Positions 1,615-34,390 of a DNA stretch of 39,456 nt are shown here, piece after piece. This DNA is from a virus (taxonomy: Duplodnaviria; Caudoviricetes): positions 1 through 39,456 of the IMG/VR virus record IMGVR_UViG_3300034161_000021. One strand, 5' to 3'. A model generated the notes under the pieces. The model saw only the letters and a list, made by a program, of their open reading frames with translations. It was not told the DNA's origin and made no database searches. The first letter of the stretch is position 1; every line of letters starts with the position of its first letter. Both the position numbers and the translations under genes were made by a program.

Positions 1615-1648
1615 GAGAGGGGTGTTCGTGTTACGCGTAACGGAATAG

Positions 1649-1675
1649 AAAACGCCCCGTCAGTGCGGGGCGTTT
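1649..1675 (-). terminator. Intrinsic terminator after the fibre assembly gene (possibly bidirectional)
   Basis: AAACGCCCC...GGGGCGTTT inverted repeat with A/T flanks, overlapping the stop at 1674. Confidence 0.65.
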
Positions 1676-2120
1676 ATTGGGGTGGGCCGGCCAACCAGGG
1701 CGGCGCCATCGGGCGGTGATCCGCCAGGGGAAACTCGGCGCCTTCCGGCCAGTTGCGCAACTGACGGCGATAGACTTGCAGTTCAGCGTATTGCTCAGCC
1801 GTGAGGGTGGTCGCAATAACTTCTTCCTGCTCATCGCGGTGGCGACTCACCACGCCGTCGGTCGCGGCAAGTTGAGCGTCCCGCCATGCCCGCTCAACTG
1901 CTGCGACATCTGCCGACGAAGGCGGTGGCGGATCAATCAGCACCGGATAACCATCAGGGCGCGCCGACATTTTTTTAGCGCTGATCGACAGCTCTTGGAG
2001 CAGCGACTGCCAATCACTCGCCGCCACCTCAACCACGTCGTCTGGCATATCAGAGCCGTGAACAGCCACTGTGTAAGCGCCGCAGGTTGAAGGACTAAAA
2101 AAAACTATATCGTTCATCAT
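1674..2120 (-). CDS. Tail fibre assembly chaperone
   Basis: FFSPST N-terminus, ERAWRDAQL and YRRQLRNWPE...FP...RP..PPWL; immediately downstream of the fibre gene. Confidence 0.85.
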   Translation of the reverse strand: MMNDIVFFSPSTCGAYTVAVHGSDMPDDVVEVAASDWQSLLQELSISAKKMSARPDGYPVLIDPPPPSSADVAAVERAWRDAQLAATDGVVSRHRDEQEEVIATTLTAEQYAELQVYRRQLRNWPEGAEFPLADHRPMAPPWLAGPPQ

Positions 2121-4090
2121 TAATACCCAATTGCTCGCCAGTATAGGGTCCAGTTTATCGCCCCTGCCCCGCTCTGATTCTGCAATAGAAGCGTGCAGCC
2201 CGCCTTATTCTGCGATCCCGACATAACGCAACTCATCAGCCCCAAAGATCCCACATGAACAGGGGTAATGTTCAGAAGCGCATTAGGAAAAGCCGTGGTA
2301 AAGCTCACATAAGCCTTACCACTGGCATCGGTTACCGCCACGCCCCACTGTTCGATGTAGCCAGATGGCAGTTTTTGAAAACCATTCGAGCCAAAGGAGC
2401 CGCTAAAGTCAGCGTTTTTACCAAGGCCAGCCGTGGACTCAACAACAGTCCATGTAGTCGAGCTCGTACCCACAAACTTGGCCGACTGGCCCGTCTTTAT
2501 CGCGTACGCTGTGCTAATCCCGCCAGACTGGTCCTGAATGGTTGTACCGGCGGGGGTAGTGACCGTCCCGCCTACCGAGGTAGCAAACAAGGTGAAGCCA
2601 GCGCTGCTGTTATTGATGCCTAGTGACAATGGCGGGGGTAGGTTGAGGGTGTACGAACCTGCCGAGCTAAACCAAAGAAGCGAACCTATATCAGTCGGCC
2701 CCAAGTCCCGGGAAGTGTTGATGGTTTGAAAGGAGCTGTATCCGTTCAATGCTCTTTGTACGAACTCGGTTGTTGCCAGCTTCTGGGTTTTGTCAAACAG
2801 CGGTGGCGTTGCCCAATCGGCGCCGGACAAGGATTTGGAATAGCGCAGCGCCGGACTGCCATGCAGGCGCCACACACCCGTCTCCTTAGTCAAGTAGGCC
2901 GTTTCACCCCACCGCAACGTGATGAACCCGTACTGCGCGCCCTCGGGGCTGATCTTGTCAGTGCCGGCGGCAGCAATGGTCTTATCGACGCCGGACGGGT
3001 TATGCAGAACGATTGTCGCGCCAGCGGGAACATCCGCCAGCAGAGGCAGTGTCGCCGCTTGAGCGCCCCCCAAAGACAGGGAAATGAACTGCCCCACGTC
3101 GGCGGCCACCAACGTGATTGCGCCACCCCCTATCGAACGACCACCCGAAAAGCTGCCCAGTGCCCGCTGAGTGAACTCAGTAGTCGCGAGCACCTTGCTG
3201 CTGTCGAACTGGGGCGCCGTAGGGGCCGTTGGCAAGCCCAACAAGGCCGGGGAATTGATCGGCGCAAACCCTTGGGTAACGTTCTGGAACGTCAGCGCAG
3301 TGGTGCCCAGGACAATCACCCCATCCGTGACCAACTGCCAACGGCTGTCGGCTAACGCGCTGCCCTGCTCAACCGATACCAGCAGCGCCGACGTCACTTC
3401 GGCATTGGTGTCGGCATCTTCCGCGCGCTTCCACACGCCCGCCGCCGCGACGTACAGACCGTTGTCCTTGGCCACGGCCTGGTTTTTCACCAGCACCCGA
3501 TCACCGGCCGCCAACGCAATGCCGTCGATGGTCAACAGGCCCGCCAGCGCGATGTTGGCCGTGGTGGCCACGCGCACCGACTGCTTGTTGTCGAGCTTAT
3601 AAAGCTCTTCCGTGATCCGCTGATCAACGTACTCGCGAGTCGCCAGCACCACGGCCGGGTCAATCTTGAGCGTGATGCTGCCGGTGCTGGACACAATGAA
3701 GTTCATCCGCACCACTTGCGTGCGGCCGGAGCCCTGCGACAGCATCGGCTTGAAGCTCGGCGCGCAGTTGGCCACCGCCACCAGATCGCCGTCCGCGTCG
3801 TACAGACCGATTTCGCGAATCCAGCGCCCGCCCTCGTCAGCCGGGATAATTTGCTCGGCGATGATCACCGCCGCGTTGACCGGATCAACCCGGAGCTGAT
3901 TCAGCGGCCGGCGGCGCCATTCATTGATCAGCCGTGTTTGCGATTCGCTCGGAATCGGATCGGTGTCATTGGCATCACCTACCCCCATTTCGGTGATCTT
4001 CCAGGGAAGACCGAGCGCGTCGGCGTTCGCCTGCTTGGCTCTCCCCACTTTCGTGAGGAGCGCGAAAAACTGAGAATTCACATCAACCAT
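2120..4090 (-). CDS. Tail fibre protein (P2 gpH-like)
   Basis: N-terminal baseplate anchor (LLTKVGRAK, IREIGLYDADGDLVAVAN, KIDPAVVLATREYVD), SVRVATTANI...GDRVLVKNQ domain, two ATTEF repeats, C-terminal GFQKLPSGYIEQWG. Confidence 0.92.
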   Translation of the reverse strand: MVDVNSQFFALLTKVGRAKQANADALGLPWKITEMGVGDANDTDPIPSESQTRLINEWRRRPLNQLRVDPVNAAVIIAEQIIPADEGGRWIREIGLYDADGDLVAVANCAPSFKPMLSQGSGRTQVVRMNFIVSSTGSITLKIDPAVVLATREYVDQRITEELYKLDNKQSVRVATTANIALAGLLTIDGIALAAGDRVLVKNQAVAKDNGLYVAAAGVWKRAEDADTNAEVTSALLVSVEQGSALADSRWQLVTDGVIVLGTTALTFQNVTQGFAPINSPALLGLPTAPTAPQFDSSKVLATTEFTQRALGSFSGGRSIGGGAITLVAADVGQFISLSLGGAQAATLPLLADVPAGATIVLHNPSGVDKTIAAAGTDKISPEGAQYGFITLRWGETAYLTKETGVWRLHGSPALRYSKSLSGADWATPPLFDKTQKLATTEFVQRALNGYSSFQTINTSRDLGPTDIGSLLWFSSAGSYTLNLPPPLSLGINNSSAGFTLFATSVGGTVTTPAGTTIQDQSGGISTAYAIKTGQSAKFVGTSSTTWTVVESTAGLGKNADFSGSFGSNGFQKLPSGYIEQWGVAVTDASGKAYVSFTTAFPNALLNITPVHVGSLGLMSCVMSGSQNKAGCTLLLQNQSGAGAINWTLYWRAIGY

Positions 4091-4692: not shown

Positions 4693-5574
4693 TCAGCCCG
4701 CCAGCGTCACGGTGTAGCCCGTACAGTACGCCGCCTGCGCCTTGGTCGGGGCCAGGTCCTGCCATCCGACCAGCTCAACCCGGGACACACCGGCAACGTG
4801 CAACTGCGCGTCGACACCAGACCGTGCCACCTCAACGCCCAGCCGTTTGCGCGGATTGATCCAGGCCGCCAATCGACTTTTAGCCTCGACCAAGCTGGCA
4901 TCCGCTTCGGGGCCAGCGCTGGCCATGTGCAGAATCGCGTTGATTTGGTAGCGGATTACCTGGGCGCTCTGCACCGTCACCCGATCACACACCGGACGCA
5001 CGTCGTCGTCATTCAGCGCGGAGGCCACCGTGGCCAGCAACTCCGGTGGCGCCACCCCTTCCCCGTCCAAACCCAGCACCGTGACCGTAACGTAACAAGG
5101 CGCGGGACTTTCGGCCGTGGCGTCCGCCACCAACCCCGAGGCGTTGCGCGCGTGCAGGATGTAGCTGTTACGTGGGCCGGCCGTAGTCAGCCCCTCATAG
5201 GCCAACTGGATGCGCTCACGAAACGGGTCGTGATCTTCTTTGATCTCGGGCACCGGCGGAACAACCGTTAAATCCTCAGCCTGAATAACCAGGCGCTTTA
5301 GATTGACGTTGGCCCCCAAGTGATCGAGGTCGCTGCCGATGGCATGCGCCAGCAACACCGCTTTACCGGCGTCATTGACCCGGGCGCGGTTGCCGACCTT
5401 GATGTAAGCGGCGACCTCCAGCACCTTAACTACCGGATCACTTTCAAGCGCGGCGGTCCAGTTACTGCCCATGTACCCGCGAAAAACCCCCAGCCCCTCC
5501 TGATAAGCCTCTTCGAAGTCCAGCGGCTCCAACACAGTCGGTGCCGGCAGCGACGACAGATCCACAATACTCAT
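4693..5574 (-). CDS. J: Baseplate J-like protein
   Basis: Likely start MSIVDLSSLPAP (ATG 5574 overlaps the gpW stop); LESDP, GSDLDHLGA, TTAGP and VRPVCDRVTV motifs. Confidence 0.93.
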   Translation of the reverse strand: MSIVDLSSLPAPTVLEPLDFEEAYQEGLGVFRGYMGSNWTAALESDPVVKVLEVAAYIKVGNRARVNDAGKAVLLAHAIGSDLDHLGANVNLKRLVIQAEDLTVVPPVPEIKEDHDPFRERIQLAYEGLTTAGPRNSYILHARNASGLVADATAESPAPCYVTVTVLGLDGEGVAPPELLATVASALNDDDVRPVCDRVTVQSAQVIRYQINAILHMASAGPEADASLVEAKSRLAAWINPRKRLGVEVARSGVDAQLHVAGVSRVELVGWQDLAPTKAQAAYCTGYTVTLAG

Positions 5575-6185: not shown

Positions 6186-6752
6186 TTAATGCGTGTGGTG
6201 GTTGCTGTTACCACCGGCGTCGATGATCGCGCCGGCGCTGGTGATGCCCTTCGTAACGTGTAACGCGCCGTCGATCAGCACCGCCGCTTTCAGGGTGATG
6301 TTCCCGGCCGTTACCGTAACGGCGCTGGCAGTTACGACCGCCTCCGTGCTGCCAACTTTGATGGTCACCGTGCCGCTCGGTAGGTTGATGGTGTAGCTCT
6401 TGGCCTGCCAGTCGTAGATCAGCGAGCCGCCATCATCAAACCGCCAGGTTTCCACATGGTCGCGGTTATCCGGCGGCGGGCCGGCATTGCCGTACAAACC
6501 CGGGATAAACGTACCTTGTGCCAAATCACCGCTGGCACTGATCAAGGTCCCCTGCTCGTACATGGATGGCGCCCGCCAGTGCCTGGCCTTACCGGCGGCG
6601 ATGCTGTGCCAACGCACCCAGGCGCTGACCCAGTCACCACCATCCGACACCCGACACACTGGCGGGGAGGCCGCCAGATCGACCGCCACCACATAACAAT
6701 CCTTGACCACCCCCGCCAACATACGATCGTGCTGGGCGCTTGCGTAGCTCAC
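6186..6752 (-). CDS. V: Baseplate spike protein (P2 gpV-like)
   Basis: [20 protein letters not shown], and C-terminal His cluster NHHTH (metal-binding spike tip). Confidence 0.92.
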
Positions 6753-7994: not shown

Positions 7995-10076
7995 TTACTT
8001 GCCGAGGGACTTGTTCAGGCCGCGAGAATCGAGCGGCGCCACGCCTGCATCGATCCGCACCTTGCTGACCACACCGTCAACGCTGAAGCCTTGCGTCTGC
8101 TCGATGTACGGTTGTTCGACGCCGTCCAGATAGGCGACTTCGATAGTGTCCGTGCCTTTTTTGGCGGCCAGATACCACTCGGTCGAGGAAACATCATCCA
8201 GGCGCGGCTCGGCGATCACCTCGGCAAAGTTGCGAATCGGGTTGTCGATGCCGGCATTGCTATCAGCGCCAGGGACCGAGGCCGAACGAATCAATTGATT
8301 CGTCTTGTCTTCCAGGCACACCGGGACCAGCACAAACGCCGGGCGAATGTTCATGGTGCGCGCCTTGGCATTGCCTTCGACCTGGGACTTTTGCAGCGCC
8401 ATGGCGGTCTTGGCTGCACTGAGCGCTTCGATGGACATCACCGAGCCGGCACCTTTGAACAGGTTTTTACGGTCCGCGTGATACAGCGCCTTAGTGTCAC
8501 TCAGCACCGGGCCGGTGGTCAGCACGTCGTAAACCAGATCGCCGATGGTGCCGCGTGCCGCCAGCCCCATGTTGTAAGGCACGGTGCTGAGCTGGTCGAG
8601 GTCGTCGTTAATGATGGCCTGACGGGTGATGCCGAACAGCTCGCCATAGCTGGCCAAGCGGATCGTTTCGCCACGGTCGCCGGTGGTGATGTATTTGTAT
8701 TCCGCACCTGGGCGAACTTCGCGCAGGCTACCGAAGGCGCCCATGCCTACACGCTTGACGGTTTTGAAGTCGCTCAAGCGGCCGGTCTTGGTCCACAGGT
8801 GGAACGTCTCCGGCGCCTCGTCCCAGCCTTGCAAGACGGACTTGCCGGCGATGTCCAACAGGATGTTGCCGAAGTCGCTGGAATCGTGAGTAAACGACAG
8901 GCCCACCATCTGCATAGGGGCCAGCGTGGCCACCAGAATGCCGCGATCATGCAACGAGGCGCGGGACAGCTCGCGTAAGCTCATGTGGTTATAGGCGTTG
9001 CTGGCTTCCGTAGCGGCGTGACCCACGCGACTGGACAGCGCTGCGCGCACCGAGTCACCCACCAGATTGCCGTTGGAGATATGGCCGTGGATGATTTGCG
9101 ACCCGGTCGGGGTGGTTTCACCGCCCAAGGCTGCCAGCAACTTCGCGTTCGCCGACTCGACAGTGCAGTTCACATCGTTGAGGCAGGTGTCTTTCAAGGC
9201 CGAGTGAGCCGCCGCAAAAGGCGCACTGAATGCGGCACTGATAGCCGTGCGACGGGTAGCGTCGTCGGCCAGGACCTGGGCGCGAATCTGATCAGCGGAC
9301 AGATTCACCGGCGCCGGGGTGTTCACCGGCGCGGGAGTATTGACCGGAGCCGGCGTGTTGACTGGGGCCTGGGTATTGACCGGCGCGGTGTTGCGCGGGT
9401 TGAACAGCGTCTGTGCCGACTGAGGCATGTTGGTGAACTCCTGCATACGATTCGAATTGAGTTGAGCGGCGGCCTTGAAGGGCTCAAGAACCTTGTCCGC
9501 GAAGCCGGCCGCCACCGCTTCGTTTCCATCCATCCACGTTTCAGCCTTCAGCAGAACCTGAATCTCTTCGGCCGTTTTTCCGGTTTTCCGCACATACGCC
9601 TGAACCAGCGTGCTTTCGACCTTGTCCAGCAACTCCGCGTACTCGCGCATCGCCTCAGCGTCACCGACCTGCCCGCCCCAGGGCTTGTGGATCATCATCA
9701 TGGCGTTGGCTGGCATGTTGATCTCATCGCCGGCCATCGCGATAACGCTGGCCATGGATGCGGCCAGACCGTCGATGTACACCACAACCCGGGCCGAATG
9801 GCCCACCAGCAGGTTGTACATGGTGTTGCCTTCGAACACGTCGCCACCTGGGGAGTGAATGTGCAAATTGATTTGTGACACGTCACCGATAGCCGCCAGA
9901 TCGCGAGCGAACTGCTTTGCCGAGATGCCCCAGGCACCAATCTCGTCATACAGCAGCACGTCAACGACGCCCCGCTGGGCGGCGGCGATCAATGAGTACC
10001 AGCTTTCACCGGGCTTATTCGTTGGCGTGATCGACGCCCTTGGCCGCATCAGCGGCAGATTTTTCAGGCTGTCCAT
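7995..10076 (-). CDS. ClpP-like prohead protease / major capsid protein fusion
   Basis: N-terminal S14 motifs (IHSPGGDVFEG, GLAASMASVI, MMIHKPW, ETWM); C-terminal capsid motifs (SSDFGNIL, LSDFK, ITRQAIINDDL, IEVAYLDG, KVRIDAG). Confidence 0.95.
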   Translation of the reverse strand: MDSLKNLPLMRPRASITPTNKPGESWYSLIAAAQRGVVDVLLYDEIGAWGISAKQFARDLAAIGDVSQINLHIHSPGGDVFEGNTMYNLLVGHSARVVVYIDGLAASMASVIAMAGDEINMPANAMMMIHKPWGGQVGDAEAMREYAELLDKVESTLVQAYVRKTGKTAEEIQVLLKAETWMDGNEAVAAGFADKVLEPFKAAAQLNSNRMQEFTNMPQSAQTLFNPRNTAPVNTQAPVNTPAPVNTPAPVNTPAPVNLSADQIRAQVLADDATRRTAISAAFSAPFAAAHSALKDTCLNDVNCTVESANAKLLAALGGETTPTGSQIIHGHISNGNLVGDSVRAALSSRVGHAATEASNAYNHMSLRELSRASLHDRGILVATLAPMQMVGLSFTHDSSDFGNILLDIAGKSVLQGWDEAPETFHLWTKTGRLSDFKTVKRVGMGAFGSLREVRPGAEYKYITTGDRGETIRLASYGELFGITRQAIINDDLDQLSTVPYNMGLAARGTIGDLVYDVLTTGPVLSDTKALYHADRKNLFKGAGSVMSIEALSAAKTAMALQKSQVEGNAKARTMNIRPAFVLVPVCLEDKTNQLIRSASVPGADSNAGIDNPIRNFAEVIAEPRLDDVSSTEWYLAAKKGTDTIEVAYLDGVEQPYIEQTQGFSVDGVVSKVRIDAGVAPLDSRGLNKSLGK
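9302..9393 (-). repeat. Tandem 18-nt repeats encoding (APVNTx)5 in the protease-capsid linker
   Basis: The protein reads NTAPVNTQAPVNTPAPVNTPAPVNTPAPVNL. Confidence 0.85.
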
Positions 10077-11771: not shown

Positions 11772-13798
11772 GCGCCTCGTCCTGTATTGACCCACGCGCC
11801 GGCCTCGTCGGGCGACGATGCGGGTGGTGGGGGTGGTAGTTCGGCCGTTACGGGTAACGCTTCCGGCTCGTCCGGTGATTCCTCAAGCGCCGGCCGAGGT
11901 TCGGCGGCCGGCACATGCCAGACGCCGCTCGGCAACTGCGCAGCGAGTAGGTCCAGATCCAGGCCGAAACGCGCCTGACTGATCCGCAACGCGGCAAGGG
12001 CATACACAAAGCAGTCAAGCGACTCGTTGCGCCGCTTGCTGGCATCCCAGCGCAACACCCGCCGGCCTTTGTTCATGATCCATTTCTTGCTTTCCGACGT
12101 GAGCTGCTTCAACTCGTCGTCATCACAGATCTCGTCGTTGGCCGGAAAGTGAACGCAGCCGGGTACGGGCTGATCGCCGTTCGGCATCAGCTTCAGACGG
12201 CCATAAATCAACTCTTTGGCGTTGTCAGTACCGACTTCAGTCAGGTAGGTTTTCGACTTGCGGTCTTTCTTGCGGGGGAAGCTGGCTATCGGCTTACCGT
12301 AGGTGCTGGCCCCGAAAATCGGGATCACCCACTGGATGCCCAACTTGCGGCTTTCGGCCTTGACCTCATCCGAGTAGTGGCCGCCGGAGTCCCAGCACCA
12401 GCGCTCGACGCCCATCACCGTGCCATCGGCGCGGGTGAACTGACGGTGAATCTCACGCCCGACTTTGCGCAACAGCTCCGAACTGGCCGGGTCACCGGTC
12501 AGAATGAACCGATGCACTAACCAACATTCCTCTTGCGCCCCGAAGGCCCAAACACGTCCCTCATACCGGTCGTCTTGGGTGTCGATGCCGCCGAACAGCG
12601 CAACCGCGCGGCCCGGTACTTGCGGATAAACCTCTCGGCGATCCCGTATTTGTTCCCAGTCCAGGCGCTCGCTTTGGTCTTCCTCCCACACCTCGCCCAG
12701 CGTGGTGTTGACGAAGGTTTTCAGCTTGCCCCGGTCCTTACCGACCTTGACGCGCTCGGCGGCAATGTCCGCCCAGGTGGTGAACGTTGAATAGACGGTC
12801 CAAATGTGAAACGTGACAGAGCGCGGGGTTTTGATCGGCTCGCCATCCAGGCCGAACCACTCCATGCCGTCACGCGTCCAGATCCCCGAACGCTCGCAGA
12901 TGTAGCGCCCGGTTTCGGCCGCTATCACCATCTCGTGATATTCGAAGGTCCCGCCCTGGCAGTGCTCGCACAAATACCAGGCCTTTTCGACTTGGCCATA
13001 TCCGTCTTTGCGCCACTTGAGGCCGTAAGGCTCATCAGGCCCGCCCCACTTCAAATGCTGCTCAGCACCGCAGCACGGCGCCTTGATGTGAAAGCGCAGC
13101 ATGTGCGGCGACTCTTCCGCCGCCCGGCTAATCTGGCACTCGCCCGCGATGCCCGGTGTAGAGCCGCGAATCGACTTCTTGTAAGTCGCGCCCTCCAGAC
13201 GCTTATCACCCAGCGAGGTCGGCGAACCCTCCCCTTCAATGTCGTCGTCAAACTTCGACAGCTCGTCATAGAGGACTTCGTCCGGGCTTTTCTCCCGGTA
13301 GTTGCGCGCCGCCTTGCCTCCCAGGCACCACAGCATTTTCTGGTTATCGAAACGCTTGGCATCCATGGTGTTGTCGCGGTGCTTACGCCCGTACCAGGGC
13401 GCCAGATCCAGCAACAGCGGAACGTCACGAATCATCGTCTCGACGTGCCGCTTCATCAGCTCATCAGCATCGGGGTCCGTTGGGCAGTAGCTCAGAACGT
13501 TGCGTTTCTTGTGCTGGACCTTGTAGCCGATGTTGATCATCAGCATTTTGGTGTAGCCGACCCGGGCCGACTTCAGCAGGTTGACCTCGCGAATCAGGTC
13601 GTTGCCCATGGCATTGAGCGGGGCCACTTGAAACGCCGCCGTGATCCACCGCCCTTCCTGATAGGACGATTCCGACGACAGATAGAAATGCTTGTTGGCC
13701 CACTCGACCGCTGTTAGCGGCGGCTCTTTGTACAGCGCGGCCAGCCCGCGACGGACAGCGTCAGTCAGCGCCCTCGTCCAGGGTGGCAATGTACTCAT
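11762..13798 (-). CDS. A: Terminase large subunit (lambda gpA family)
   Basis: KSARVGYTK Walker A, YDELSKFD Walker B, GSTP, KTFVNTTLGE, GIDTQDDRYE nuclease and RRNESLDC motifs. Confidence 0.97.
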   Translation of the reverse strand: MSTLPPWTRALTDAVRRGLAALYKEPPLTAVEWANKHFYLSSESSYQEGRWITAAFQVAPLNAMGNDLIREVNLLKSARVGYTKMLMINIGYKVQHKKRNVLSYCPTDPDADELMKRHVETMIRDVPLLLDLAPWYGRKHRDNTMDAKRFDNQKMLWCLGGKAARNYREKSPDEVLYDELSKFDDDIEGEGSPTSLGDKRLEGATYKKSIRGSTPGIAGECQISRAAEESPHMLRFHIKAPCCGAEQHLKWGGPDEPYGLKWRKDGYGQVEKAWYLCEHCQGGTFEYHEMVIAAETGRYICERSGIWTRDGMEWFGLDGEPIKTPRSVTFHIWTVYSTFTTWADIAAERVKVGKDRGKLKTFVNTTLGEVWEEDQSERLDWEQIRDRREVYPQVPGRAVALFGGIDTQDDRYEGRVWAFGAQEECWLVHRFILTGDPASSELLRKVGREIHRQFTRADGTVMGVERWCWDSGGHYSDEVKAESRKLGIQWVIPIFGASTYGKPIASFPRKKDRKSKTYLTEVGTDNAKELIYGRLKLMPNGDQPVPGCVHFPANDEICDDDELKQLTSESKKWIMNKGRRVLRWDASKRRNESLDCFVYALAALRISQARFGLDLDLLAAQLPSGVWHVPAAEPRPALEESPDEPEALPVTAELPPPPPASSPDEAGAWVNTGRGAWL

Positions 13799-14315
13799 TC
13801 AAAATCTCCGGGATGGCTTCGGCCAAACCGGCCGCCTCGTTACGCGTAACGGCAATCTCACGCTCGACCGCTTCAAGGTGGCGGGCCTCAAAGTCGGGAT
13901 GCTTGCGTCTTAGGTTCTTCGGAACGGTGTCGAGCGTAGAGCCCAACATGGCGGCCAAACGGCCCAGGGCGAACACGGCAAAATCAGCCGGCACCAGCTC
14001 GCCGTCCTTGACCTTGTTCCGACGCTCCTGGGCGGTGGCTTGACCCTCGGTCAATCGCAACCGCGCCTGCTGCAACTTGTATTCAATGAGCGGATCGATC
14101 TCGTTTCCGTTCTCATCGACCGGTTGTTGTTTCTGCCCGGCGTGCTTGATCCGGTTTTCCAGCACCGACCGGACGTCGTAAAACGATTCGCGGCCGATCT
14201 TGGCCACCGCCGCAACGCCCCATTTATCAAAGGCTTGCGTCGATATACCGAGGCTGTCGGCCATGCGCGTCTTGTTCAGCCATTCCGGCTTACGGGTGAT
14301 CGATGGATTAGCCAT
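13761..14315 (-). CDS. nu1: Terminase small subunit (Nu1-like)
   Basis: Likely start MANPSIT (14315); winged HTH LNKTRMADSLGISTQAFDKWG followed by a coiled coil; overlaps the gpA start. Confidence 0.9.
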   Translation of the reverse strand: MANPSITRKPEWLNKTRMADSLGISTQAFDKWGVAAVAKIGRESFYDVRSVLENRIKHAGQKQQPVDENGNEIDPLIEYKLQQARLRLTEGQATAQERRNKVKDGELVPADFAVFALGRLAAMLGSTLDTVPKNLRRKHPDFEARHLEAVEREIAVTRNEAAGLAEAIPEILNEYIATLDEGAD

Positions 14316-16404: not shown

Positions 16405-16863
16405 TCAGAGCCACAACGCCCGTTCAAGTTGCGGCAAAACGCAGGGCAACTCACCCGCCCAAACCCCGCCGCAGCCCCGTGGCATGGGCTTTCGGCAGTG
16501 CGCGCAGATTTTGTTTGCCACAACCTCGCGCTGCTGTTTGATCAAATCAGCGTCACGCCGGAGCAGCGTCAAAACGTATTCGGTTGCGGTATACGGTTCG
16601 GCTCCAGATGCCCGAAATATAAGGGCTTCAGCCAATTGCGCCGCCTCGACCGGCCCAATTCTGGCGCGCAACTCCACAACCCCGGCCGCCGCGTCGCGCT
16701 CTCGCTGCTCTCGCTTGCGGATCGCCTCGGCGCTCAGCTCGCTTTCGCCATCGCTGTGACGCGTCACAAGCCCCGCCTCTTCGGCCAGCTCGACACAAGC
16801 GACGATGCGCGCAGCGTCGCCCTCCATCTGCTCCATCTGCCCCATGGCGGTCTGAGCGTCCAT
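16405..16863 (-). CDS. Hypothetical protein with C-terminal Cys cluster
   Basis: 152 aa with GAGG RBS; EYVLTLLRRD followed by CAHC...GC...C. Confidence 0.7.
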   Translation of the reverse strand: MDAQTAMGQMEQMEGDAARIVACVELAEEAGLVTRHSDGESELSAEAIRKREQRERDAAAGVVELRARIGPVEAAQLAEALIFRASGAEPYTATEYVLTLLRRDADLIKQQREVVANKICAHCRKPMPRGCGGVWAGELPCVLPQLERALWL

Positions 16864-16901: not shown

Positions 16902-18167
16902 CTAAGCCAGCCATCCCGCCGGGTCCACGGCAGCGGGCTTAACCGCGCGTCTTGCTCCTGTCTTGTCCTGCAACGCGTCAAAACCCTGCGCATCGAGCCA
17001 GCCATGCCAGCGGTCCAGGGCGTTGCGCTTAACCTGCTCGCCCATGGCTTGGAAGTAGGTGCGCTCCAGATCGGTCGTGGAATGGTTGAGCAACAGCTTG
17101 CCCACCAGCGGATCAACGCCCAGGTTTGCCCATATAGAAGGCGCGAGCTTGCGCAGGTCGTGACTGGTCCACTCGCCGGCACCGTAACGGGTGAACACAG
17201 CGAAGGCCTGACTACGGGACATCGGACGGCCAGCGTGCGCGGTGGACGGAAACAGATAGGCCCCGTCATACCCCCTCGCCTTTTGGTTTTCTCGGTACCG
17301 ACTCAGAAAGGCCACGGCTTGCGGGGTTAGCGGCAACAGGTGGTCGCGCTTGGATTTGGTGTCAGCCCCGGGAATGAACCACTCACCGGCGTCTAAATGG
17401 ATGTTTTTCCACTTGGCCAAGCGGGTTTCGCTGATTCGGGTTGCATGGGTCAGCATCAGCACCATTAGGGCCACAGCGGCCGGATCACTCGCGAAGGCCT
17501 CAGCCCATGCGGCCAGCAGATCCACCACGGCGACGTGACGCAAACGCGCGCCCTTGGGCCGGATCTTGGCCTTGGTGAAGTTGCCGAAGGTCACCCCCGC
17601 CATGGGGTTGACGGTGATTTTCTTGAGGGTCAGTGCGCGGTTAAACACCACCTTCAGCACGTCCAACGCCGATTTGACGTAGCCCAGACTGTACTCTTCC
17701 TGCATGTGCCAAATCAGGTGCCGGTCGAGTGTGTCGGGATTGAGTTTGCTCAGGTGCAGTTCGCCCAGGGCGGGCAACAACTGGCGGTTGATCAGCGACA
17801 TCGAGGACGCCCGGCGATCCTTGGACAGACTCCGATCAGCCTTCAGCCGCTCGACGTACCAGCCCAGCACCTGGCCCACCCGCTCCCAGCCATCCACGGT
17901 GGCCGCTGCCTTCGGATCAGCCATCAAGCGAGCCAGCACCGCCGGCACGCTGTCGATCATCAGCCGGGCCGGTACGGCGGGCCAGTTCGCGGCCTTTCTC
18001 CAGATGTCGCCTTTGTCATGCCGGACTATGTGCCAACTGCCCCGGGTGCGGTCGTTACGGTAACGAAAACGCAACGGGTGACGGGGGTCGTTCAGCTCAA
18101 CAATGGTCGGATCATCGGCATAACGCTTAATGACCGCATCGGACAGGGAGACGCTAAGTGTTGCCAT
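16902..18167 (-). CDS. Tyrosine recombinase (integrase/resolvase)
   Basis: Catalytic set visible: TRISE (R), TKSK (K), HDLR (HxxR), LLNH (H), RTY (Y). Start at 18167 or 18191. Confidence 0.9.
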   Translation of the reverse strand: MATLSVSLSDAVIKRYADDPTIVELNDPRHPLRFRYRNDRTRGSWHIVRHDKGDIWRKAANWPAVPARLMIDSVPAVLARLMADPKAAATVDGWERVGQVLGWYVERLKADRSLSKDRRASSMSLINRQLLPALGELHLSKLNPDTLDRHLIWHMQEEYSLGYVKSALDVLKVVFNRALTLKKITVNPMAGVTFGNFTKAKIRPKGARLRHVAVVDLLAAWAEAFASDPAAVALMVLMLTHATRISETRLAKWKNIHLDAGEWFIPGADTKSKRDHLLPLTPQAVAFLSRYRENQKARGYDGAYLFPSTAHAGRPMSRSQAFAVFTRYGAGEWTSHDLRKLAPSIWANLGVDPLVGKLLLNHSTTDLERTYFQAMGEQVKRNALDRWHGWLDAQGFDALQDKTGARRAVKPAAVDPAGWLA

Positions 18168-20681: not shown

Positions 20682-20759
20682 AACAGATATGCTGTTTATA
20701 TTGGACAGCAGCAAACCTAAACACAAGTTCTTTTTAGTGTTCCTTACACTTTGAATGTA
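20682..20759. promoter_or_regulatory. Immunity operator region between cro and cI
   Basis: AACAG-ATATG-CTGTT (20682-20696), half site ending GTGTT (20727-20741), TACAC-TTTGA-ATGTA (20745-20759); AT-rich. Confidence 0.65.
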
Positions 20760-20795
20760 TATTCAGCGGCTGGAATGATTCCTAAAGAGACGCCA

Positions 20796-21455
20796 ATGTT
20801 TGACATCAAAGACAAGATAACCCCTCGACTCAAGGCGTGCCGCGCACACAAAGGATGGACGTTCGCGGAAACTGCCGCTGAATTGGCGAAGATCACCGGG
20901 ACGAAGTTCAGCACTTCCCGGTATGGGAACTGGGAACTCGGGATCAATATCCCGCCCTTAGAAATGCTGTTTATCTTGGGCAAACTCTTCGGCAAGCCGC
21001 CCGCGTATCTCGCAGGACTTACGGACGACGACGGAACCTCACCCGAAACCCGAAAATATTCGGTGCCATCCCAATCGACCGTACCCAGCCCGAACGGCCT
21101 AGTTAAGCTCGGCGACAACGCACTGGCATTCCGCTCAAGCTTTCTAGACAGCATCAAGCTGAGCAAGGAGAAAATCCTCCTTGTCGTAGCGCCGGACGAC
21201 AGCATGGCCGGCATCATTGAAGAAGGCGACCGCGCACTGATTGACCTCAGCGAAACCACCGTTACCCGTAACGACATTTTCGCAATCATGGTTAATAGCC
21301 GGCTTTGGCTGCGCTGGATTCGTCAAACCCTAGAGGGCAATTACGCCATTCAAGCGGAACACCCGGATCGCTACCCCGACCAGACCCTGACCCCGGAACA
21401 ACTGGGCGGCCTGCACATCATCGGACGCGTGCGCATGATCAATCACTTGCGCTAA
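20796..21455 (+). CDS. cI: CI-like repressor (XRE HTH plus S24-like domain)
   Basis: RLKACRAHKGWTFAETA...SRYGNWELGINIP HTH; DDSMAGIIEEGDRALID and C-terminal IIGRV of the S24 fold. Start 20796 or slightly upstream. Confidence 0.9.
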   Translation: MFDIKDKITPRLKACRAHKGWTFAETAAELAKITGTKFSTSRYGNWELGINIPPLEMLFILGKLFGKPPAYLAGLTDDDGTSPETRKYSVPSQSTVPSPNGLVKLGDNALAFRSSFLDSIKLSKEKILLVVAPDDSMAGIIEEGDRALIDLSETTVTRNDIFAIMVNSRLWLRWIRQTLEGNYAIQAEHPDRYPDQTLTPEQLGGLHIIGRVRMINHLR

Positions 21456-22081: not shown

Positions 22082-22543
22082 ATGTACGCTGAAAAGGACA
22101 TTCACGGCGAAGACGTTATAGGGCGACCGGGTCAGGCTCTCTCTAATGCCGAGTTACGCGTATTGGTAGGCTTGGCCGATGGTGACTCCCCCAGCACCAT
22201 CGGCGCACTCATTGGCGTCGATCAAAGCAGCTTCCGGCTACTGGAAAGCAACATAAAAGCCAAGCTCGGCGCCAAGACACACCCCCACATGATTGCCCGC
22301 GCCTTCACCCTGGGCGTGCTGATTCCTCGGGCGCTCTGCCTACTGCTGTCGGTCTTGTGTGCGACCGAGCACGTAGACGATGGCAACCGCAACCAAACCC
22401 GACGCGGCGGCCGCACCGCTCCCGCTTCGCGACTGGCCAGGAACAGCATCACCCGCGCCGCCAGCGGCCCAGGCGGCCAACTCGAAAGCGTTCGCCTTGC
22501 CCAGTGCTTTCAACTGGCCGGCGCACTTCTAGCTGTTAGCTAA
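22082..22543 (+). CDS. LuxR-type HTH protein
   Basis: LSNAELRVLVGLADG...IG..IG...NIKAKLGAKTHPHMIARAFTLG; AAGGA RBS. Confidence 0.8.
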   Translation: MYAEKDIHGEDVIGRPGQALSNAELRVLVGLADGDSPSTIGALIGVDQSSFRLLESNIKAKLGAKTHPHMIARAFTLGVLIPRALCLLLSVLCATEHVDDGNRNQTRRGGRTAPASRLARNSITRAASGPGGQLESVRLAQCFQLAGALLAVS

Positions 22544-22627
22544 TTAGCTAAAACGCTAATTAGCTTGTCATTCTGATCCCCGGGGTTATACTTTATTCGT
22601 CTTTAGCTAATTCGCTAATTCGATAAA
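22530..22627. repeat. 8-bp iteron arrays upstream of parA (operator/centromere)
   Basis: TAGCTAAT TAGCTAAA ACGCTAAT TAGCT (~22537-22565) and TAGCTAAT TCGCTAAT TCGATAAA (22604-22627). Confidence 0.8.
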
Positions 22628-22640
22628 GGAAACCCCGCAG

Positions 22641-23294
22641 ATGCAAACCCCTCACGCAATCGGCTGTATCTCTCAAAAAGGCGGCGCCTGGAAATCCACC
22701 ATCGCCCGCGCTCTTGGCACCACCTACACCGTGGCCGGCTGGGAAACCAAAATCATCGACCTCGACATCAAACAAGCCACCGCGACCAATTGGGGGCAGC
22801 GCCGCTTGCGCGCCGGCATCACACCCGATGTTCCCGTCCAGCTCTATGGAAACGTGGCCGCCGCCATGAGCCGTGCCGGTGATGCCGACCTGTACATTTT
22901 TGATGGCCCGGCGAACGCCACCGAAGAAACCGTCAGAATCGCCAAAGCCTGCCAACTGCTGATCCTCCCGACCGGCCTCACCCTCGACGACCTTGAACCA
23001 CAAATTTCGCTGGCCAACAGTTTGGTCGATTCGCACGGGGTGCCGGTTGAGCGGATTGTGTTCGCTCTGTGCAAGGCCAGCACACGCTCGGCGCCGGTGG
23101 ACGCTGCGCGCGTCTATTTGGGCAAAACCCGCTTTGCCGTCCTCGACGGCTCGATTCGCAATCAGGACTGCTACGCGTCCGCCATGAACGAAGGGCGCTC
23201 GATCACCGAAACGCCTTTTAAGGGGCCGCGCACAGAAGCCATGCAGGTCATTCAATCGGCGGTTAACCACTTCGAACGGTTGATCTCCGCCTAA
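22641..23294 (+). CDS. parA: ParA-family partition ATPase (short type Ib, ParF-like)
   Basis: Deviant Walker A QKGGAWKST, IIDLDIKQAT, Walker B IFDGP; no N-terminal HTH. Confidence 0.92.
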   Translation: MQTPHAIGCISQKGGAWKSTIARALGTTYTVAGWETKIIDLDIKQATATNWGQRRLRAGITPDVPVQLYGNVAAAMSRAGDADLYIFDGPANATEETVRIAKACQLLILPTGLTLDDLEPQISLANSLVDSHGVPVERIVFALCKASTRSAPVDAARVYLGKTRFAVLDGSIRNQDCYASAMNEGRSITETPFKGPRTEAMQVIQSAVNHFERLISA

Positions 23295-23326
23295 TAGCTA
23301 ATTAGCTAAATCGCTAAATCGCTGTT
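23295..23326. repeat. 8-bp iteron array between parA and the RHH gene
   Basis: TAGCTAAT TAGCTAAA TCGCTAAA TCGCTGTT. Confidence 0.8.
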
Positions 23327-23361
23327 AAGATCAATTCACCGCGCATTCAGGACTCACAACC

Positions 23362-23652
23362 ATGGCCAGCAAAACCACAACAACCCCCGATGCTCCCGCC
23401 GTCAAAGTGGCCAAGCCACCACGCCGCAAGAGCCTGGGCGAGCCGCCACAGACCGCCACCGAAACAGCCGCAGTCGGCAATAACACGAAGGTCGCCGCTG
23501 ACGACAAGTTAGTGGATTTGGGCTTCAAACTGCCCCAGGCGTTCCGCCGAAACTTTCGCTTGTTCTGCGCAAGCAACGACATGGCCCAGGTGGACGCGTT
23601 TAGGGAGGCAATGGCGGATTACATGAAGAAAAAAGGTTGGGAGTCCAACTGA
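23362..23652 (+). CDS. Centromere-binding ribbon-helix-helix protein (ParG-like)
   Basis: Low-complexity N-terminal tail then LVDLGFKLPQAFRRNFRLFCASNDMAQVDAFREAM (beta-alpha-alpha pattern); directly after parA. Confidence 0.8.
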   Translation: MASKTTTTPDAPAVKVAKPPRRKSLGEPPQTATETAAVGNNTKVAADDKLVDLGFKLPQAFRRNFRLFCASNDMAQVDAFREAMADYMKKKGWESN

Positions 23653-23913: not shown

Positions 23914-23930
23914 ATTATCCGTGTGACCGG

Positions 23931-24173
23931 TCACGACTCGACGGCAAACGCCCGGATACCAGCGCCCGAAGTGAACCGCTCCACCGTGTCCAGACTCGCC
24001 CAGGTGCGAACCCCTTCGCGCTGGGAACGCACGGCCAGCCAGTTGGCCCCAGGGCCGCCCAGGCGCACATAGACCGCCCAGCGCTCACCGTGCCGGGCCA
24101 CTTTGCACTCCCGCACCGAGCCGCCGGCGATCAGTTCCAGCAACTGGCCCTCATCGAAGCCTTTACGCTTCAT
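23931..24173 (-). CDS. Small plasmid-type protein (family often labelled ParC/stability protein)
   Basis: MKRKGFDE...WAVYVRLG...VRSQREGVRTWASLDTVERF...GI..F.VE; family recognised from memory only. Confidence 0.6.
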   Translation of the reverse strand: MKRKGFDEGQLLELIAGGSVRECKVARHGERWAVYVRLGGPGANWLAVRSQREGVRTWASLDTVERFTSGAGIRAFAVES

Positions 24174-24268
24174 GCTGCCCCCGGTCCCACATTGAAAACA
24201 CCACCCCGCCCCCTTTATTCCAATCACCCACATCGACAACCCGGGCAGCGTACCAGACGCCGACCGCG

Positions 24269-24514
24269 TTACCGTAACGCCGGTAGCGTGTAGTCGCCAT
24301 CGTATCGTGGCCGCAGCTCGACCGAGCCGGGCGGCGCACGCCAGATCCGCCGCAGAATATCCGCCTGATCACCGTCGCCCTGGGGATAGGTCACACACTC
24401 GTGCCTCGGCACCCCGTACAACTGGCGCAGTTGGGACACCCCGACAAAATGCCGCTGCCCATCGGTGCGGCTAATCACGTAACCCGGACACAGCACATAA
24501 CGCGGCAGGCTCAT
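24269..24514 (-). CDS. Hypothetical phage protein
   Basis: MSLPRYVLCPGYVISRTDGQRHFVG...LYGV...LRPRYDGDY; ATGA overlap with the upstream gene. Confidence 0.7.
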   Translation of the reverse strand: MSLPRYVLCPGYVISRTDGQRHFVGVSQLRQLYGVPRHECVTYPQGDGDQADILRRIWRAPPGSVELRPRYDGDYTLPALR

Positions 24515-25630: not shown

Positions 25631-25665
25631 GGGTGAATCTCCTTTTTAAATGAGTGTGTGACACG

Positions 25666-25935
25666 TCACGCGGCGTCGGTATCGGCGGGGTGCTGCTCGG
25701 CCGCTCGGGCATTGACCAGATCGGCCACCCGATCCGCGCTGACCATGGCCAGCGTTTCGGAACAGGTGTCACAGCCGAGATGAAACAGACACTCCACGTC
25801 GTGGGTATTAAGCCGGCCGTTCTGTACAGCGGAGCGATTGACGATGGACGTCGCCCAGGTCAGGGCGGTGCCGCCGCAGTGGCGACAGGTGGTAGTCGTG
25901 AAGGCCTGGGCGGTCTTGGCGATGGTGTCGCTCAT
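25666..25935 (-). CDS. Zinc-ribbon hypothetical protein
   Basis: CRHCGG...GRLNTHDVECLFHLGCDTCSET; AAGGA RBS. Confidence 0.75.
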   Translation of the reverse strand: MSDTIAKTAQAFTTTTCRHCGGTALTWATSIVNRSAVQNGRLNTHDVECLFHLGCDTCSETLAMVSADRVADLVNARAAEQHPADTDAA

Positions 25936-27781: not shown

Positions 27782-27810
27782 GAAAAACTCAAGCGCAAGG
27801 TGAAGACGAA

Positions 27811-27862
27811 TAGGCACATGTGCCTAATGCAAGATAATAGGCACATGTGCCTATTCGGTCAA
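27811..27862 (-). promoter_or_regulatory. Sigma70 promoter TTGACC-N17-TATTAT with two TAGGCACATGTGCCTA operators
   Basis: Identical 16-bp palindromes at 27811-27826 and 27838-27853; one overlaps the spacer and -10, the other the expected start site. Confidence 0.85.
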
Positions 27863-27920
27863 CCGGCGGGGGCTGATCCCGCTCGATGGCCTGGGGTCGT
27901 TACGCATAACGGCCACCTAC

Positions 27921-29447
27921 TCACCCGGCTACCGGTGCCACCGTGGATGGCCCGGCAACCTCCTGGGCGATTTGCTGAATGGCGTCCTGCAAACGCTTGA
28001 TTTCGGCACGGTCGGCGGTCCGCTCCTTGTACAGTTTATCCGTCGTCTTGCGCTCATCCTCGTAGCATTTCCAGCCGCGTTTAGCTTCCTTGTCGCGATG
28101 TTTATTGCGGTTGATTACCCCCTGATCTTGGTCAAGATTGGCCTTAAATTCATCGGTCCAAATTGGGCACCCCTGAAAAATCCGCTCAAGGTTTTCAAGC
28201 ACATACGGCGACTCTAGATGTTCAAGGTCAGCGCGCGCCGTGAAGTACACACTGAACGCCCACAGCATCAATGAATCTTCATCCCGGGTCAGTCGAACCG
28301 TACGCGCCCAGTTATGCGGATCGTCAGCGGACACACTGACTTCAGCCGCGACCGGCTGGCCCGCGCGCAACGCCCGGTTTTCTTCTTGCAGGCGCTGCAC
28401 CATCGTCTGCTGCCGCGCCAGCTCATCGCGCAAAAAGGCGGCCGGGCGGCGGGTACTGCGTTGCGGCTCGGCCAAGTAACGGCCGTTTTCACCCTCGGGC
28501 CACAGCTTGGTCAGCAACGCGTCAAACCCGGGCTTTTTCGTGGTCGCCCAATCCTTTGGACGGTGGTCGAGGTCTTCGTGGGCCAGCAGGCCCAGGCTTA
28601 ATACCATGCGGTCAGTCTGGGTCAGCGGAATGGCCTTGAGCCCTTCAGTGTCGGCCAGTTCTTTCAGCCGCTGCCGGTGCCGCCGTTGCCGCTCGGCATT
28701 ACTCTGCGGCACCTTGGCATTTGGATCTTTCGGCGCATCGCCGAACATGGCCATCTGGCCATCAGGCCGAACGCCGGCCAGCGCATCCGCCAGCCACGGA
28801 TAGACTTTGCGGTCTTTCGGCGTGCCATGCTCTTGGTCGATGGCCACCGCCTTGCCCTCGCCTGCCAGCAACTCCAGCACCTCAGCGCGCACCGCTTGAT
28901 CCACAGAGCGGCCCAGGTGCTGCGCCGGACGCATGTACTGATGCCGATACCCGGTCCGACTCAAAAAGGGCCGGTCGAAGTCCACCGCGCGCAGCTCGGC
29001 GCCGCAGTGGTTCGACAGCGAATCGGGGCACATCTTGACCACGATGCGTATGCCCTCGACTTCCAGCAGGAATTCGCCGGCCTGCCCCCACGCGGGCACC
29101 TGCCCAGACGGCGCCGAAAACTTGGCCTCTAACGCAACCTGAACCACCGCCGAGCCGAAGTGCGTGCCGCCGTTGAGCTTGATCACACAGGCGCGATACA
29201 CCACGTCGGCCTCGTCCAGCGCCGGCACATCACCTGCCAGCATGGCGTCATGGTAGAGCTGTCGAGCGCCCGAGGCGCGCGCCTCCAGTTCAACGGGGTC
29301 GGCCGGCAATGCAGCGACGGCCGCGATGAACTCGGGACGCTCTTCCAGAGGGACGTATTGCATAGGTTTCTTGCGGGCCATCGCGGGCACTCCACTGTGC
29401 GCCCCGGCCGGCAGGCCGGGGCTACTGTCCTTAAAGTCCGATTTCAT
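27921..29447 (-). CDS. klcB: KlcB-like protein with C-terminal SNAERQRRHR DNA-binding motif and coiled coils
   Basis: YHDAMLAGD, KLNGGTHFG, GQVPAWGQAGEFL and AVDFDRPFLSRTGYRH match IncP KlcB motifs as recalled; start at 29447 or at MARKKP (29381). Confidence 0.72.
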   Translation of the reverse strand: MKSDFKDSSPGLPAGAHSGVPAMARKKPMQYVPLEERPEFIAAVAALPADPVELEARASGARQLYHDAMLAGDVPALDEADVVYRACVIKLNGGTHFGSAVVQVALEAKFSAPSGQVPAWGQAGEFLLEVEGIRIVVKMCPDSLSNHCGAELRAVDFDRPFLSRTGYRHQYMRPAQHLGRSVDQAVRAEVLELLAGEGKAVAIDQEHGTPKDRKVYPWLADALAGVRPDGQMAMFGDAPKDPNAKVPQSNAERQRRHRQRLKELADTEGLKAIPLTQTDRMVLSLGLLAHEDLDHRPKDWATTKKPGFDALLTKLWPEGENGRYLAEPQRSTRRPAAFLRDELARQQTMVQRLQEENRALRAGQPVAAEVSVSADDPHNWARTVRLTRDEDSLMLWAFSVYFTARADLEHLESPYVLENLERIFQGCPIWTDEFKANLDQDQGVINRNKHRDKEAKRGWKCYEDERKTTDKLYKERTADRAEIKRLQDAIQQIAQEVAGPSTVAPVAG

Positions 29448-29634: not shown

Positions 29635-29697
29635 CGGGTTAGCTCCGGGGTTGCAGGCTTAGCGAGATTGCCCGGCCTTGGTCGCATTCTACATAGT

Positions 29698-29822
29698 TAG
29701 CTAATTCGCACAATAGCTAATTAGCTAATTATAGAAAGACTCTCTGCCGTGGCTGACTCGGAATGCACCGCCGTCCCCTGCCGCATTTCTTTATTAGCTA
29801 ATTCGCGCAATAGCTAATTAGC
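29698..29822. repeat. Two 8-bp iteron arrays upstream of the klcB-like operon
   Basis: TAGCTAAT TCGCACAA TAGCTAAT TAGCTAAT (29698-29729) and TAGCTAAT TCGCGCAA TAGCTAAT TAGC (29795-29822). Confidence 0.8.
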
Positions 29823-31673: not shown

Positions 31674-31679
31674 CTGACC

Positions 31680-33198: not shown

Positions 33199-33213
33199 AC
33201 AAACTCCAGACGT

Positions 33214-33234: not shown

Positions 33235-33246
33235 CCATGGGATGCG

Positions 33247-34293
33247 TTACAGCTTTTCGACGCTCACAACCTTGAGCGGCCCGTCTTTCTTCTTTTTCTT
33301 GCCTTTAGATTTTCCTTTCTTACCGGCATTGCACTCGACTGTCGTGGACCAGCCGGATTGGGTAAACACCTGCTCGACCGATTCCGCCAGATACTCGCCA
33401 TCGAGCCCGACCTTGAAGCCCTGGGCGTTGATTGGCCGCTCTGCAAAAATGTCCGTGCGGCCGGGCATCTCAAGACGAACATCAGCGGTCGAGCGGTTGA
33501 ACGCCGCTAAACGCGCCTTAGCGGCTGCCTCGGCGGCGGTCTTGTTCGGATAGATATGTCTATCGGTATGCACCGCCGGCAAGCCATCCGGGGCGTCATC
33601 GTTGTTCACCGTGACAACCGCCAGCTTGCCGTCCTTCTTGTTCTGGTGCTTGGTCGCCACGGCCTTGTGCGAGTTGCGATCCCCGAGACTAAACTGCCAG
33701 CGACTAAGGTCGCTCTTCGTCAGGGTGATCGCGCCGAATGCCTTGCCGCTGGCGGTTTGGCCACCTTGACGCGGCATCACCAACAGCTTGCCGTCGGCGA
33801 CCTTGGCCGTGCAGTCGTATTGCTTGGCCAGGCGCGTGATGAAATTAAAATCGGACTCGTTGAGCTGATCCACCCGGGCGACTTTCGTTGATACCGGACA
33901 GACCGCCTGCCAGCCATTGCGCGCGGCGATGTCGGCCACGATCTTCGACAGCGGCACGTCCTCCCAGCTTCCGCTACGGATGGTCTTGCCACTGCCACGC
34001 ATGTCGCTGGCCTTGCCCTTGATCACAATCGTGTCCGGCGGACCCGACACTTCGACCGAGTCCACCGCGTAACGCCCCAGGCGCGTCAGGGACGTTTCGG
34101 CATAGCCCAGGTAGATCTCGATAGAACTGCCGCGCGCAGGCAACTGCACCTCGCCGTCACGATCATCAATGCGCAACTCAAACTCGTCGGAGTCCATGCC
34201 GGGCTTGTCTGAGGTGCGCAGCAACAACAGCCGGTCGTTGATCTTGGCCGTAATATCGGCGCCGTTGGCAACGATTCGAAACGTCGGAGTCAT
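33247..34293 (-). CDS. D: Late control/baseplate hub protein (P2 gpD-like)
   Basis: Likely start MTPTFRIVANGADIT (34293); SDEFELRIDDRDG and DQLNESDFNFITRLA. Confidence 0.92.
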   Translation of the reverse strand: MTPTFRIVANGADITAKINDRLLLLRTSDKPGMDSDEFELRIDDRDGEVQLPARGSSIEIYLGYAETSLTRLGRYAVDSVEVSGPPDTIVIKGKASDMRGSGKTIRSGSWEDVPLSKIVADIAARNGWQAVCPVSTKVARVDQLNESDFNFITRLAKQYDCTAKVADGKLLVMPRQGGQTASGKAFGAITLTKSDLSRWQFSLGDRNSHKAVATKHQNKKDGKLAVVTVNNDDAPDGLPAVHTDRHIYPNKTAAEAAAKARLAAFNRSTADVRLEMPGRTDIFAERPINAQGFKVGLDGEYLAESVEQVFTQSGWSTTVECNAGKKGKSKGKKKKKDGPLKVVSVEKL

Positions 34294-34304
34294 GGATTTT
34301 GTCC

Positions 34305-34329
34305 AAAAAGAAACCCGCACAAGGCGGGT
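34305..34329 (-). terminator. Terminator between gpX and gpD
   Basis: Minus strand ACCCGC-CTTGT-GCGGGT-TTCTTTTT. Confidence 0.6.
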
Positions 34330-34390
34330 CAAAAAACAAAGTGTCGTTACGCGTAACGCAACGGACTGCCGGCGGCGGTGTTGCCCGAGG

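Follow-up and report, generated by a model that had tools for sequence, protein, structure and literature searches.

Background

In the Enterobacterales the chromosomal Ter region carries matS, GTGAC[AG]N[TC]GTCAC (PMC3603311), a palindrome dispersed in and between genes that MatP reads through its helix alpha4 and strand beta1, residues H38-D42 of the protein forming its bridge to MukE (PMC8669397). Sites spread over a whole genome are also known from cluster A mycobacteriophages, whose many stoperators often lie at gene junctions and are proposed to halt elongation (PMC9283540), and from IncP plasmids, where KorB operators, palindromes found all over the plasmid, serve to repress from a distance (PMC13768133) and KfrA joins a DNA-binding head to a coiled-coil tail (PMC7821693). 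We describe a set of short palindromes of the general form GTKAC-N2-GTMAC (N2 being a spacer of two nucleotides (nt) and N1 a spacer of one) that is scattered, at roughly one per 3 kb, over IMG/VR record IMGVR_UViG_3300034161_000021, a viral stretch of 39,456 nt hereafter called the window. The sites fall into class A, GTGAC-N2-GTCAC, and class B, which comprises GTTAC-armed sites (CGTTAC-N1/2-GTAACG) and N1 sites generally, and the candidate readers are the products of two genes on the minus strand, 16405..16863 (protein A) and 27921..29447 (protein B).

The sites share with matS their arms and their dispersal in and between genes, but the spacer is 2 or 1 nt instead of 3 and they lie on a mobile element and not in a chromosomal Ter region. 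The modelled core of protein A is collinear, in a weak match, with the alpha4-beta1-helix-helix order of MatP, whereas MatP Pfam domains and the N-terminal part with the MukE bridge are missing, and a zinc finger (protein A) or a KlcB-like domain (protein B) is added. Like stoperators, the sites are numerous over the genome of a temperate phage, and part of them stand at gene junctions; stoperators differ in being asymmetric, orientation-dependent 13-mers bound by a monomeric immunity repressor (PMC9283540), whereas here the sites are palindromes, many lie inside genes, and the candidate binders are other than the repressor-like gene. Plasmid-wide palindromes and the klcB-korC gene order, retained in the window, recall IncP plasmids, but no ParB-family protein, which a dispersed centromere of the KorB or N15 type would need, was matched in 57 open reading frames (ORFs) with Pfam and PHROGs and 12 with NCBIfam, a few small genes being outside the Pfam scan, and the KlcB of IncP plasmid pDTC28 has no basic module, that plasmid having no sites. 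CopB/RepA2 proteins are repressors made of a basic helix and a ribbon-helix-helix that act at one operator at the rep promoter; protein A differs in its zinc finger, and its resemblance to that family (PF10723, RepB-RCR_reg) is limited to a weak feature match (score 0.83) and to profile matches below significance in 3 of 113 members (best E 0.028). Integron attC sites are long imperfect hairpins with AAC..GTT ends, one per cassette; integron-like cassette sites were rejected as the present ones are 11-12 bp long, have the order GTT..AAC and are conserved inside core genes. By the features tested the system is outside both MatP/matS and stoperators, and on the reading we favour its sites act as dispersed operators whose readers resemble MatP. 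No description of it was found in a literature search that left subscription papers largely outside; the exact 12-mer sites matched unrelated papers only, and 'MatP-like' together with 'phage' gave nothing.

A site system under selection

A complete temperate phage of 39.5 kb makes up the window. Profile scans recognise in it head genes of the lambda type and tail genes of the P2 type, together with ParA, a tyrosine recombinase and a gene labelled Rep-like from its position and from phrog_20951. It is a circular assembly with redundant ends, which overlap by 155 bases at 92% identity with a gap (1-155 against about 39314-39456). Its relatives are stand-alone contigs of 39-40 kb in three Pseudomonas assemblies or circular plasmid records such as pPL-38ph, and on the end overlap together with these relatives the element is judged to be a Pseudomonas phage-plasmid, with the host taken from the relatives.

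Nine exact copies of GTKAC-N2-GTMAC are present in the window against 0.04 expected, and 100 dinucleotide shuffles gave at most one. When synonymous codons were resampled with the proteins kept, the mean was 0.27 and the maximum 2 in 2000 runs, against six exact sites in coding sequences; one of these (34346), covered by a late-control-D ORF that is drawn too long at its 5' end, is probably intergenic. An artefact of composition or codon usage is ruled out by these shuffles and resamplings. Allowing up to one mismatch gives 15 sites (2.33 expected), the six imperfect ones by themselves being weakly above chance. Four N1 sites occur, and under resampling three compare with a mean of 0.53, a number equalled in 13 of 2000 runs; spacers of 0, 3, 4 and 5 nt gave no site in the window. 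The initial annotation, made by eye, had listed the nine exact sites, the four N1 sites (5081, 6310, 18054 and 24268) and one-mismatch sites at 15753, 26088 and 27899, and all are where it placed them, with three further one-mismatch copies (6253, 10470 and 16337) that it overlooked; it also read VTRN/VTRH correctly in the 16405 gene, in terS and in the repressor-like gene, and the enrichment it had estimated persists against a codon-preserving shuffle.

Selection on the DNA itself was examined at eight coding sites by comparing third-position identity inside the arms with the rest of the same gene in aligned relatives; related phages and plasmids share ancestry, so that these and the linkage counts below are not independent samples. 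An excess was found at four of the eight. It is complete at the class A site in the 5' part of the gene for protein A itself (16756..16767), where 90 of 90 synonymous arm positions are kept against 0.69 and all 40 aligned relatives retain the site (four were unaligned), the encoded residue varying between R, G and C through the spacer only (VTRH in the window, VTGH or VTCH in relatives). In terS, the gene for the small terminase subunit, the class B site (13839..13850, VTRN) is present in 17 of 22 aligned relatives with 53/58 against 0.59, and the class A site in the protease-capsid gene (9875..9886) in 16 of 21 with 67/76 against 0.60. The gene for the tyrosine recombinase (16902-18191) has an N1 site of class B (18054..18064) that gives 112/131 against 0.67, relatives encoding RYRN (24) or RYRH (5). 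The class B site in the C-terminal linker of the terminase large subunit (11847..11858) is lineage-specific, with 13/18 against 0.58 and the site retained in four relatives only. No synonymous excess was seen among relatives at the lineage-specific class B site of the repressor-like gene 20751-21455 (21261..21272; 23/45) or at the two baseplate sites, one with N1 and mixed arms in baseplate J (5081..5091) and one a lineage-specific N1 class B site in baseplate V (6310..6320). The expectation of conservation at synonymous positions thus holds for the 16405 gene, terS, capsid and recombinase and fails for the repressor-like and baseplate sites. An element-specific site system under selection is real, and it is probably two systems.

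The sites belong to the element and not to its host. In three host assemblies 14 of 24, 11 of 16 and 8 of 12 sites lie on the phage contig, at densities of 205-346 per Mb compared with 0.6-1.4 per Mb elsewhere, and this near-absence from the host assemblies rules out a host motif as the source of the sites. The initial annotation had proposed dispersed sites specific to the replicon, and with hosts nearly free of the motif (about 1 per Mb) that proposal is upheld. All six other full-length Pseudomonas relatives carry 6-14 N2 and 3-12 N1 sites each (about 0.1 expected per spacer), the number per genome being 9-20, and PARCL1pr is among these site-rich relatives despite its different virion genes.

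An integrated prophage (L048-L049, G001:C26) shares the tail module at about 85-92% amino acid (aa) identity for most genes and keeps three sites, the one ahead of late-control D being absent. In that host the phage-plasmid differs in its head module, with a 9.9-kb stretch without sites.

Two site classes and two candidate readers

All nine exact window sites have matched arms, five GTTAC..GTAAC and four GTGAC..GTCAC. Over all genomes counted the arms match in 170 of 184 unique N2 sites, mixed arms being found in 14 of these 184 and in 18 of 66 N1 sites, and the matching of arms therefore suggests two readers where the initial annotation had seen a single site system.

Class A sites track gene A, a member of phrog_536 whose product has a predicted basic helix (aa 45-59), a ribbon-helix-helix (RHH; aa ~61-117) and a C4 zinc finger. 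The family comprises 158 clusters at 50% identity, and in 113 members the basic-helix arginines R49 and R54 are conserved at 96% and 100%, followed by a strand, two helices and the zinc finger. GTGAC-NN-GTCAC lies within 300 bp of gene A in all 43 loci of the window's own group, in 3 of 3 loci of a further type and in 70 of 80 lambdoid loci of the enterobacterial type (the best 80 out of 206 loci), in 59 of which, by our count, the TGA of the gene falls inside the left arm; control motifs gave 0-8 per group. Unrelated named phages from Yersinia, Pectobacterium, Pantoea and Vibrio carry 1-4 sites each, one of them at the 3' end of gene A, in AhyVDH1 there is no exact site and a one-mismatch copy crosses the gene A stop, and in HDW18 no site was found near the gene. 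In most phages of family A a locus has about one site, with xis or cargo genes next to it, and in many phages gene A comes after the recombinase or ahead of xis/int. Outside Pseudomonas, the loci selected for their gene A, mostly partial genomes amounting to 2.05 Mb, contain 155 GTGAC-N2-GTCAC sites, seven other sites and none that is GTTAC-armed. From this linkage it is likely that class A sites are bound by protein A.

In P2-like prophages (L153-L189, e.g. L153 10847-10891) a near-copy stands 33 bp upstream of the site in 34 of 34, and the paired sites adjoin a variable cargo region ahead of the portal gene. The partner domain to which the basic module is fused varies from element to element (L017 6530-7738, L231 1555-2742), and the C-terminal part of the fused protein of PARCL1pr has the look of a PAPS-reductase-type domain.

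Protein B combines a KlcB-like N-terminal domain, to which 338 plasmid records match (many annotated klcB, the pA506 relative being annotated KlcB family), with a basic helix-strand-helix module at aa ~246-290 (module B) and a tail that by eye looks like a coiled coil. Module B matches the family-A profile with a probability of 84% (pairwise E 7e-6) and is present in six of seven full-length relatives at E<=1e-4; a search of the ESM Atlas gave nothing above 0.85. Four plasmids have module B without gene A, according to a gene search that included a positive control, and of their 21 sites none is GTGAC-N2-GTCAC. In pA506 all four sites are GTTAC-armed, one of them inside its own KlcB-like gene, and this GTTAC-specific count stands out against 0.047 expected per spacer. 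Three P. aeruginosa plasmids, from 3 of 30 matches examined, have 6, 9 and 2 sites that are N1, GTTAC-armed or mixed, and one of the three is annotated with a VirB system and without phage genes. Phage-plasmids with both genes carry both sets of sites. Since plasmids that have module B but not gene A carry GTTAC-armed and N1 sites, and such sites are missing where gene A alone is present, protein B is the probable binder of class B. The initial annotation had put protein B forward for binding tests on the whole set; it is a good candidate at the GTTAC-armed and 1-nt-spacer sites, the class A sites following gene A instead. A one-mismatch class B site (27899..27910) lies 11 bp past the stop of the KlcB-like gene. 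The stretch that follows that gene (27545-27817, minus strand) is KorC-like, an alignment of 41 aa with IncP KorC showing 29% identity (pairwise E 3e-4).

The core of protein A was modelled with a predicted local distance difference test score of 93.8, and its best structural match among 48,161 chains is MatP bound to matS (3vea_B; Z 5.6, 78 of 83 residues, root mean square deviation 6.3). In the alignment the basic helix of the candidate modules falls on alpha4 of MatP and their strand on beta1, and the aligned core starts at MatP residue 66 (E. coli) or 78 (3vea_B), the MukE bridge region lying outside it and being absent here. Foldseek returned nothing for either model at E<=0.001, and a sequence search of the PDB gave weak zinc-finger matches only, to YbiI/TraR (E 0.006-0.03). 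The C4 zinc finger itself (16405-16510, minus strand) weakly resembles TraR/YbiI. A protein search for diverse MatP homologues gave near-identical E. coli sequences only, and genome searches one doubtful match. The likeness to matS that the initial annotation had pointed out has a parallel in the predicted MatP-like fold of a candidate binder, itself a weak match, whilst no site with a 3-nt spacer is present in the window.

Placement of the sites and their possible role

Sites just ahead of a ribosome-binding site (RBS) and start codon number 20 of 105, compared with 2.8% of random positions, a 7-fold enrichment. In the window a class A site crosses the stop codon of 23931-24239 (23923..23934) ahead of a terminator-like hairpin, another crosses the stop of 25666-25935 (25658..25669) and is followed by an RBS and the next start, and an N1 class B site crosses the stop of 24269-24571 (24268..24278). 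Class B sites lie between the tail-fibre assembly and sheath genes (GTTAC-GC-GTAAC, 1630..1641), in the same place in relatives and in the integrated prophage that shares the tail module, and, probably intergenic, between the tail X-like and late-control-D genes (34346..34357). In the annotated P. aeruginosa plasmid five of nine sites overlap stop codons. Scoring by mechanical ORFs gives 37 of 118 against about 14% expected, a figure inflated by shadow ORFs (in the window 8 of 13 mechanically and 3 of 13 on curated genes), and since a stop triplet is part of either type of arm, stops may be just cheap places for a site. Proximity to cos or att was rejected as a common rule, no single pattern being seen. 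In one relative (L051 5447-7712) stop-site-RBS-start units are repeated between small early genes, which suggests cassette-like turnover.

The reading we favour, to which we give a probability of roughly 45%, is that the two site sets are bound by two element proteins that act as brakes on transcription. Dimers of protein A, the product of a widespread temperate-phage gene that usually accompanies one to four sites and here more, would read GTGAC-NN-GTCAC, and the homologous module of the KlcB-like protein B, encoded by a plasmid-backbone gene, would read CGTTAC-N1/2-GTAACG and N1 sites generally, both through a predicted MatP-type basic helix and RHH. Bound at stop codons, before RBSs and inside late genes, they might make transcription pause, or weaken its read-through from gene to gene in the operons of the circular plasmid prophage, without regard to orientation.

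A number of observations weigh against this reading or parts of it. As regards protein A, 37 P2-like loci are without sites in the 300 bp next to the gene, their 34 sites lying further downstream. Its kinship with MatP in sequence is not significant (hhalign E 0.057, the MatP side of the comparison being one sequence), neither candidate nor any of the 113 family-A members matches MatP (PF06303) or MatP_C (PF17414) in Pfam, the Z of 5.6 is below the tool's typical best of 7-8, and RHH antitoxins tie with MatP on Z (5.1-5.4), though they cover the RHH part only. As regards protein B, PARCL1pr has ten GTTAC-armed sites yet matches module B at E 2.1 only, pKenaga1 has a diverged module B but a single site of class A type, the total of four in pA506 is barely above the tool's control of three, the module-B plasmids represent two lineages, with 3 of the 30 P. 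aeruginosa matches examined, and exact sites inside or within 60 bp after KlcB-like genes number only 10 of 19 against an estimated 5 or so by chance. Finally, 85 of the 105 sites are not ahead of an RBS, and stoperators, according to PMC9283540, need an orientation that palindromes do not have.

The same two binders could instead be architectural and bridge, compact or position the circular replicon, or exclude host complexes of the SMC (structural maintenance of chromosomes) type from it. This is rather unlikely, but it is kept alive by the conserved intragenic sites and the matS arms: most sites are free of any fixed position, several are in essential genes under constraint at the DNA level, MatP is the top fold match, extrachromosomal circles including conjugative-type plasmids have high site numbers, and protein B has its coiled-coil-looking tail. 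The initial annotation had leaned towards compaction or positioning. Spacing, however, is more even than random in only one of seven genomes, with gaps of up to 11 kb, the H38-D42 bridge of MatP to MukE precedes the aligned part, most family-A phages have about one site, Vibrio and Aeromonas phage-plasmids have 1-4 N2 sites only, and partition has its own ParA iterons. It is the uneven spacing, the bias to junctions before RBSs, the absence of the MukE part and the single site of most family-A phages that lead us to favour brakes over compaction or positioning.

That protein A reads every variant and protein B is irrelevant seems improbable; mixed-arm sites do occur and GTTAC-armed sites flank gene A in PARCL1pr, but arms read independently would make about half the sites mixed, and GTTAC-armed and N1 sites are found on plasmids without gene A and are missing where gene A alone was selected. 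The repeated stop-site-RBS units of the variable early region, and the position of gene A after the recombinase or ahead of xis/int in many phages, could suggest that the sites are junctions of cassettes shuffled by the tyrosine recombinase or by homologous exchange. Sites recognised by tyrosine recombinases have arms of 11-13 bp and a spacer of 6-8 bp, unlike arms of 5 bp and a spacer of 1-2 bp, and conserved sites lie deep in the terS, capsid and recombinase genes, so that we hold recombination to be very improbable. Hardly any weight is given to pairing of the arms as small hairpins in single-stranded DNA or RNA, or to binding by a host protein: the arm positions co-vary G-C and T-A, but a hairpin loop of 1-2 nt is too tight, the hosts are without the motif, a genome search did not find the MatP family in host G001, and the type of site follows the gene content of the element.

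Neighbouring features

ParA and a small partner, labelled ParG-like from size and position only, are encoded at 22536..23652 (plus strand) with iterons of their own, outside the palindrome system. The repeat TTAGCTAA occurs seven times in the window against 0.18 expected, at 22536-23309 and 29697-29801, with four copies around parA and the other three in the interval that separates the klcB-like operon from the Rep-like gene, and these are likely the sites of the small partner. That the palindromes are the ParA iterons was rejected, as the ParA repeats carry another motif, in agreement with the independence from them that the initial annotation had proposed.

True matS (3-nt spacer, RNY) and some other 3-nt-spacer sites occur on Vibrio, Edwardsiella and Aeromonas elements (W04 36517, W05 3154, W06 375, L019 19491; about 0.05-0.15 expected each), and these matS copies are possibly docking sites for host MatP. 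An 82-kb plasmid record (NZ_CP085886.1, hit H102) has both candidate genes twice and is probably a dimer of a 41-kb phage-plasmid.

Implications

The analysis gives predicted DNA targets to two uncharacterised families, phrog_536 of Gammaproteobacterial temperate phages and the KlcB-fused module known from Pseudomonas phage-plasmids and conjugative-type plasmids. A broader idea, which we consider speculative and unlikely as it stands, is that MatP-like modules form a whole family on phages and plasmids, every module having a matS-like palindrome of its own. Two such modules would be stacked in the Pseudomonas phage-plasmids to make a private mini-macrodomain, by which the circle is organised or protected against SMC-type machines of the host, chromosomal MatP/matS then being a domesticated member of the family. 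Arms equal to those of matS, together with a modelled MatP-like fold, offer a handle on the origin of MatP and on the spacer length that separates host from element sites, and should the role prove architectural this would be a replicon-organising system for mobile DNA.

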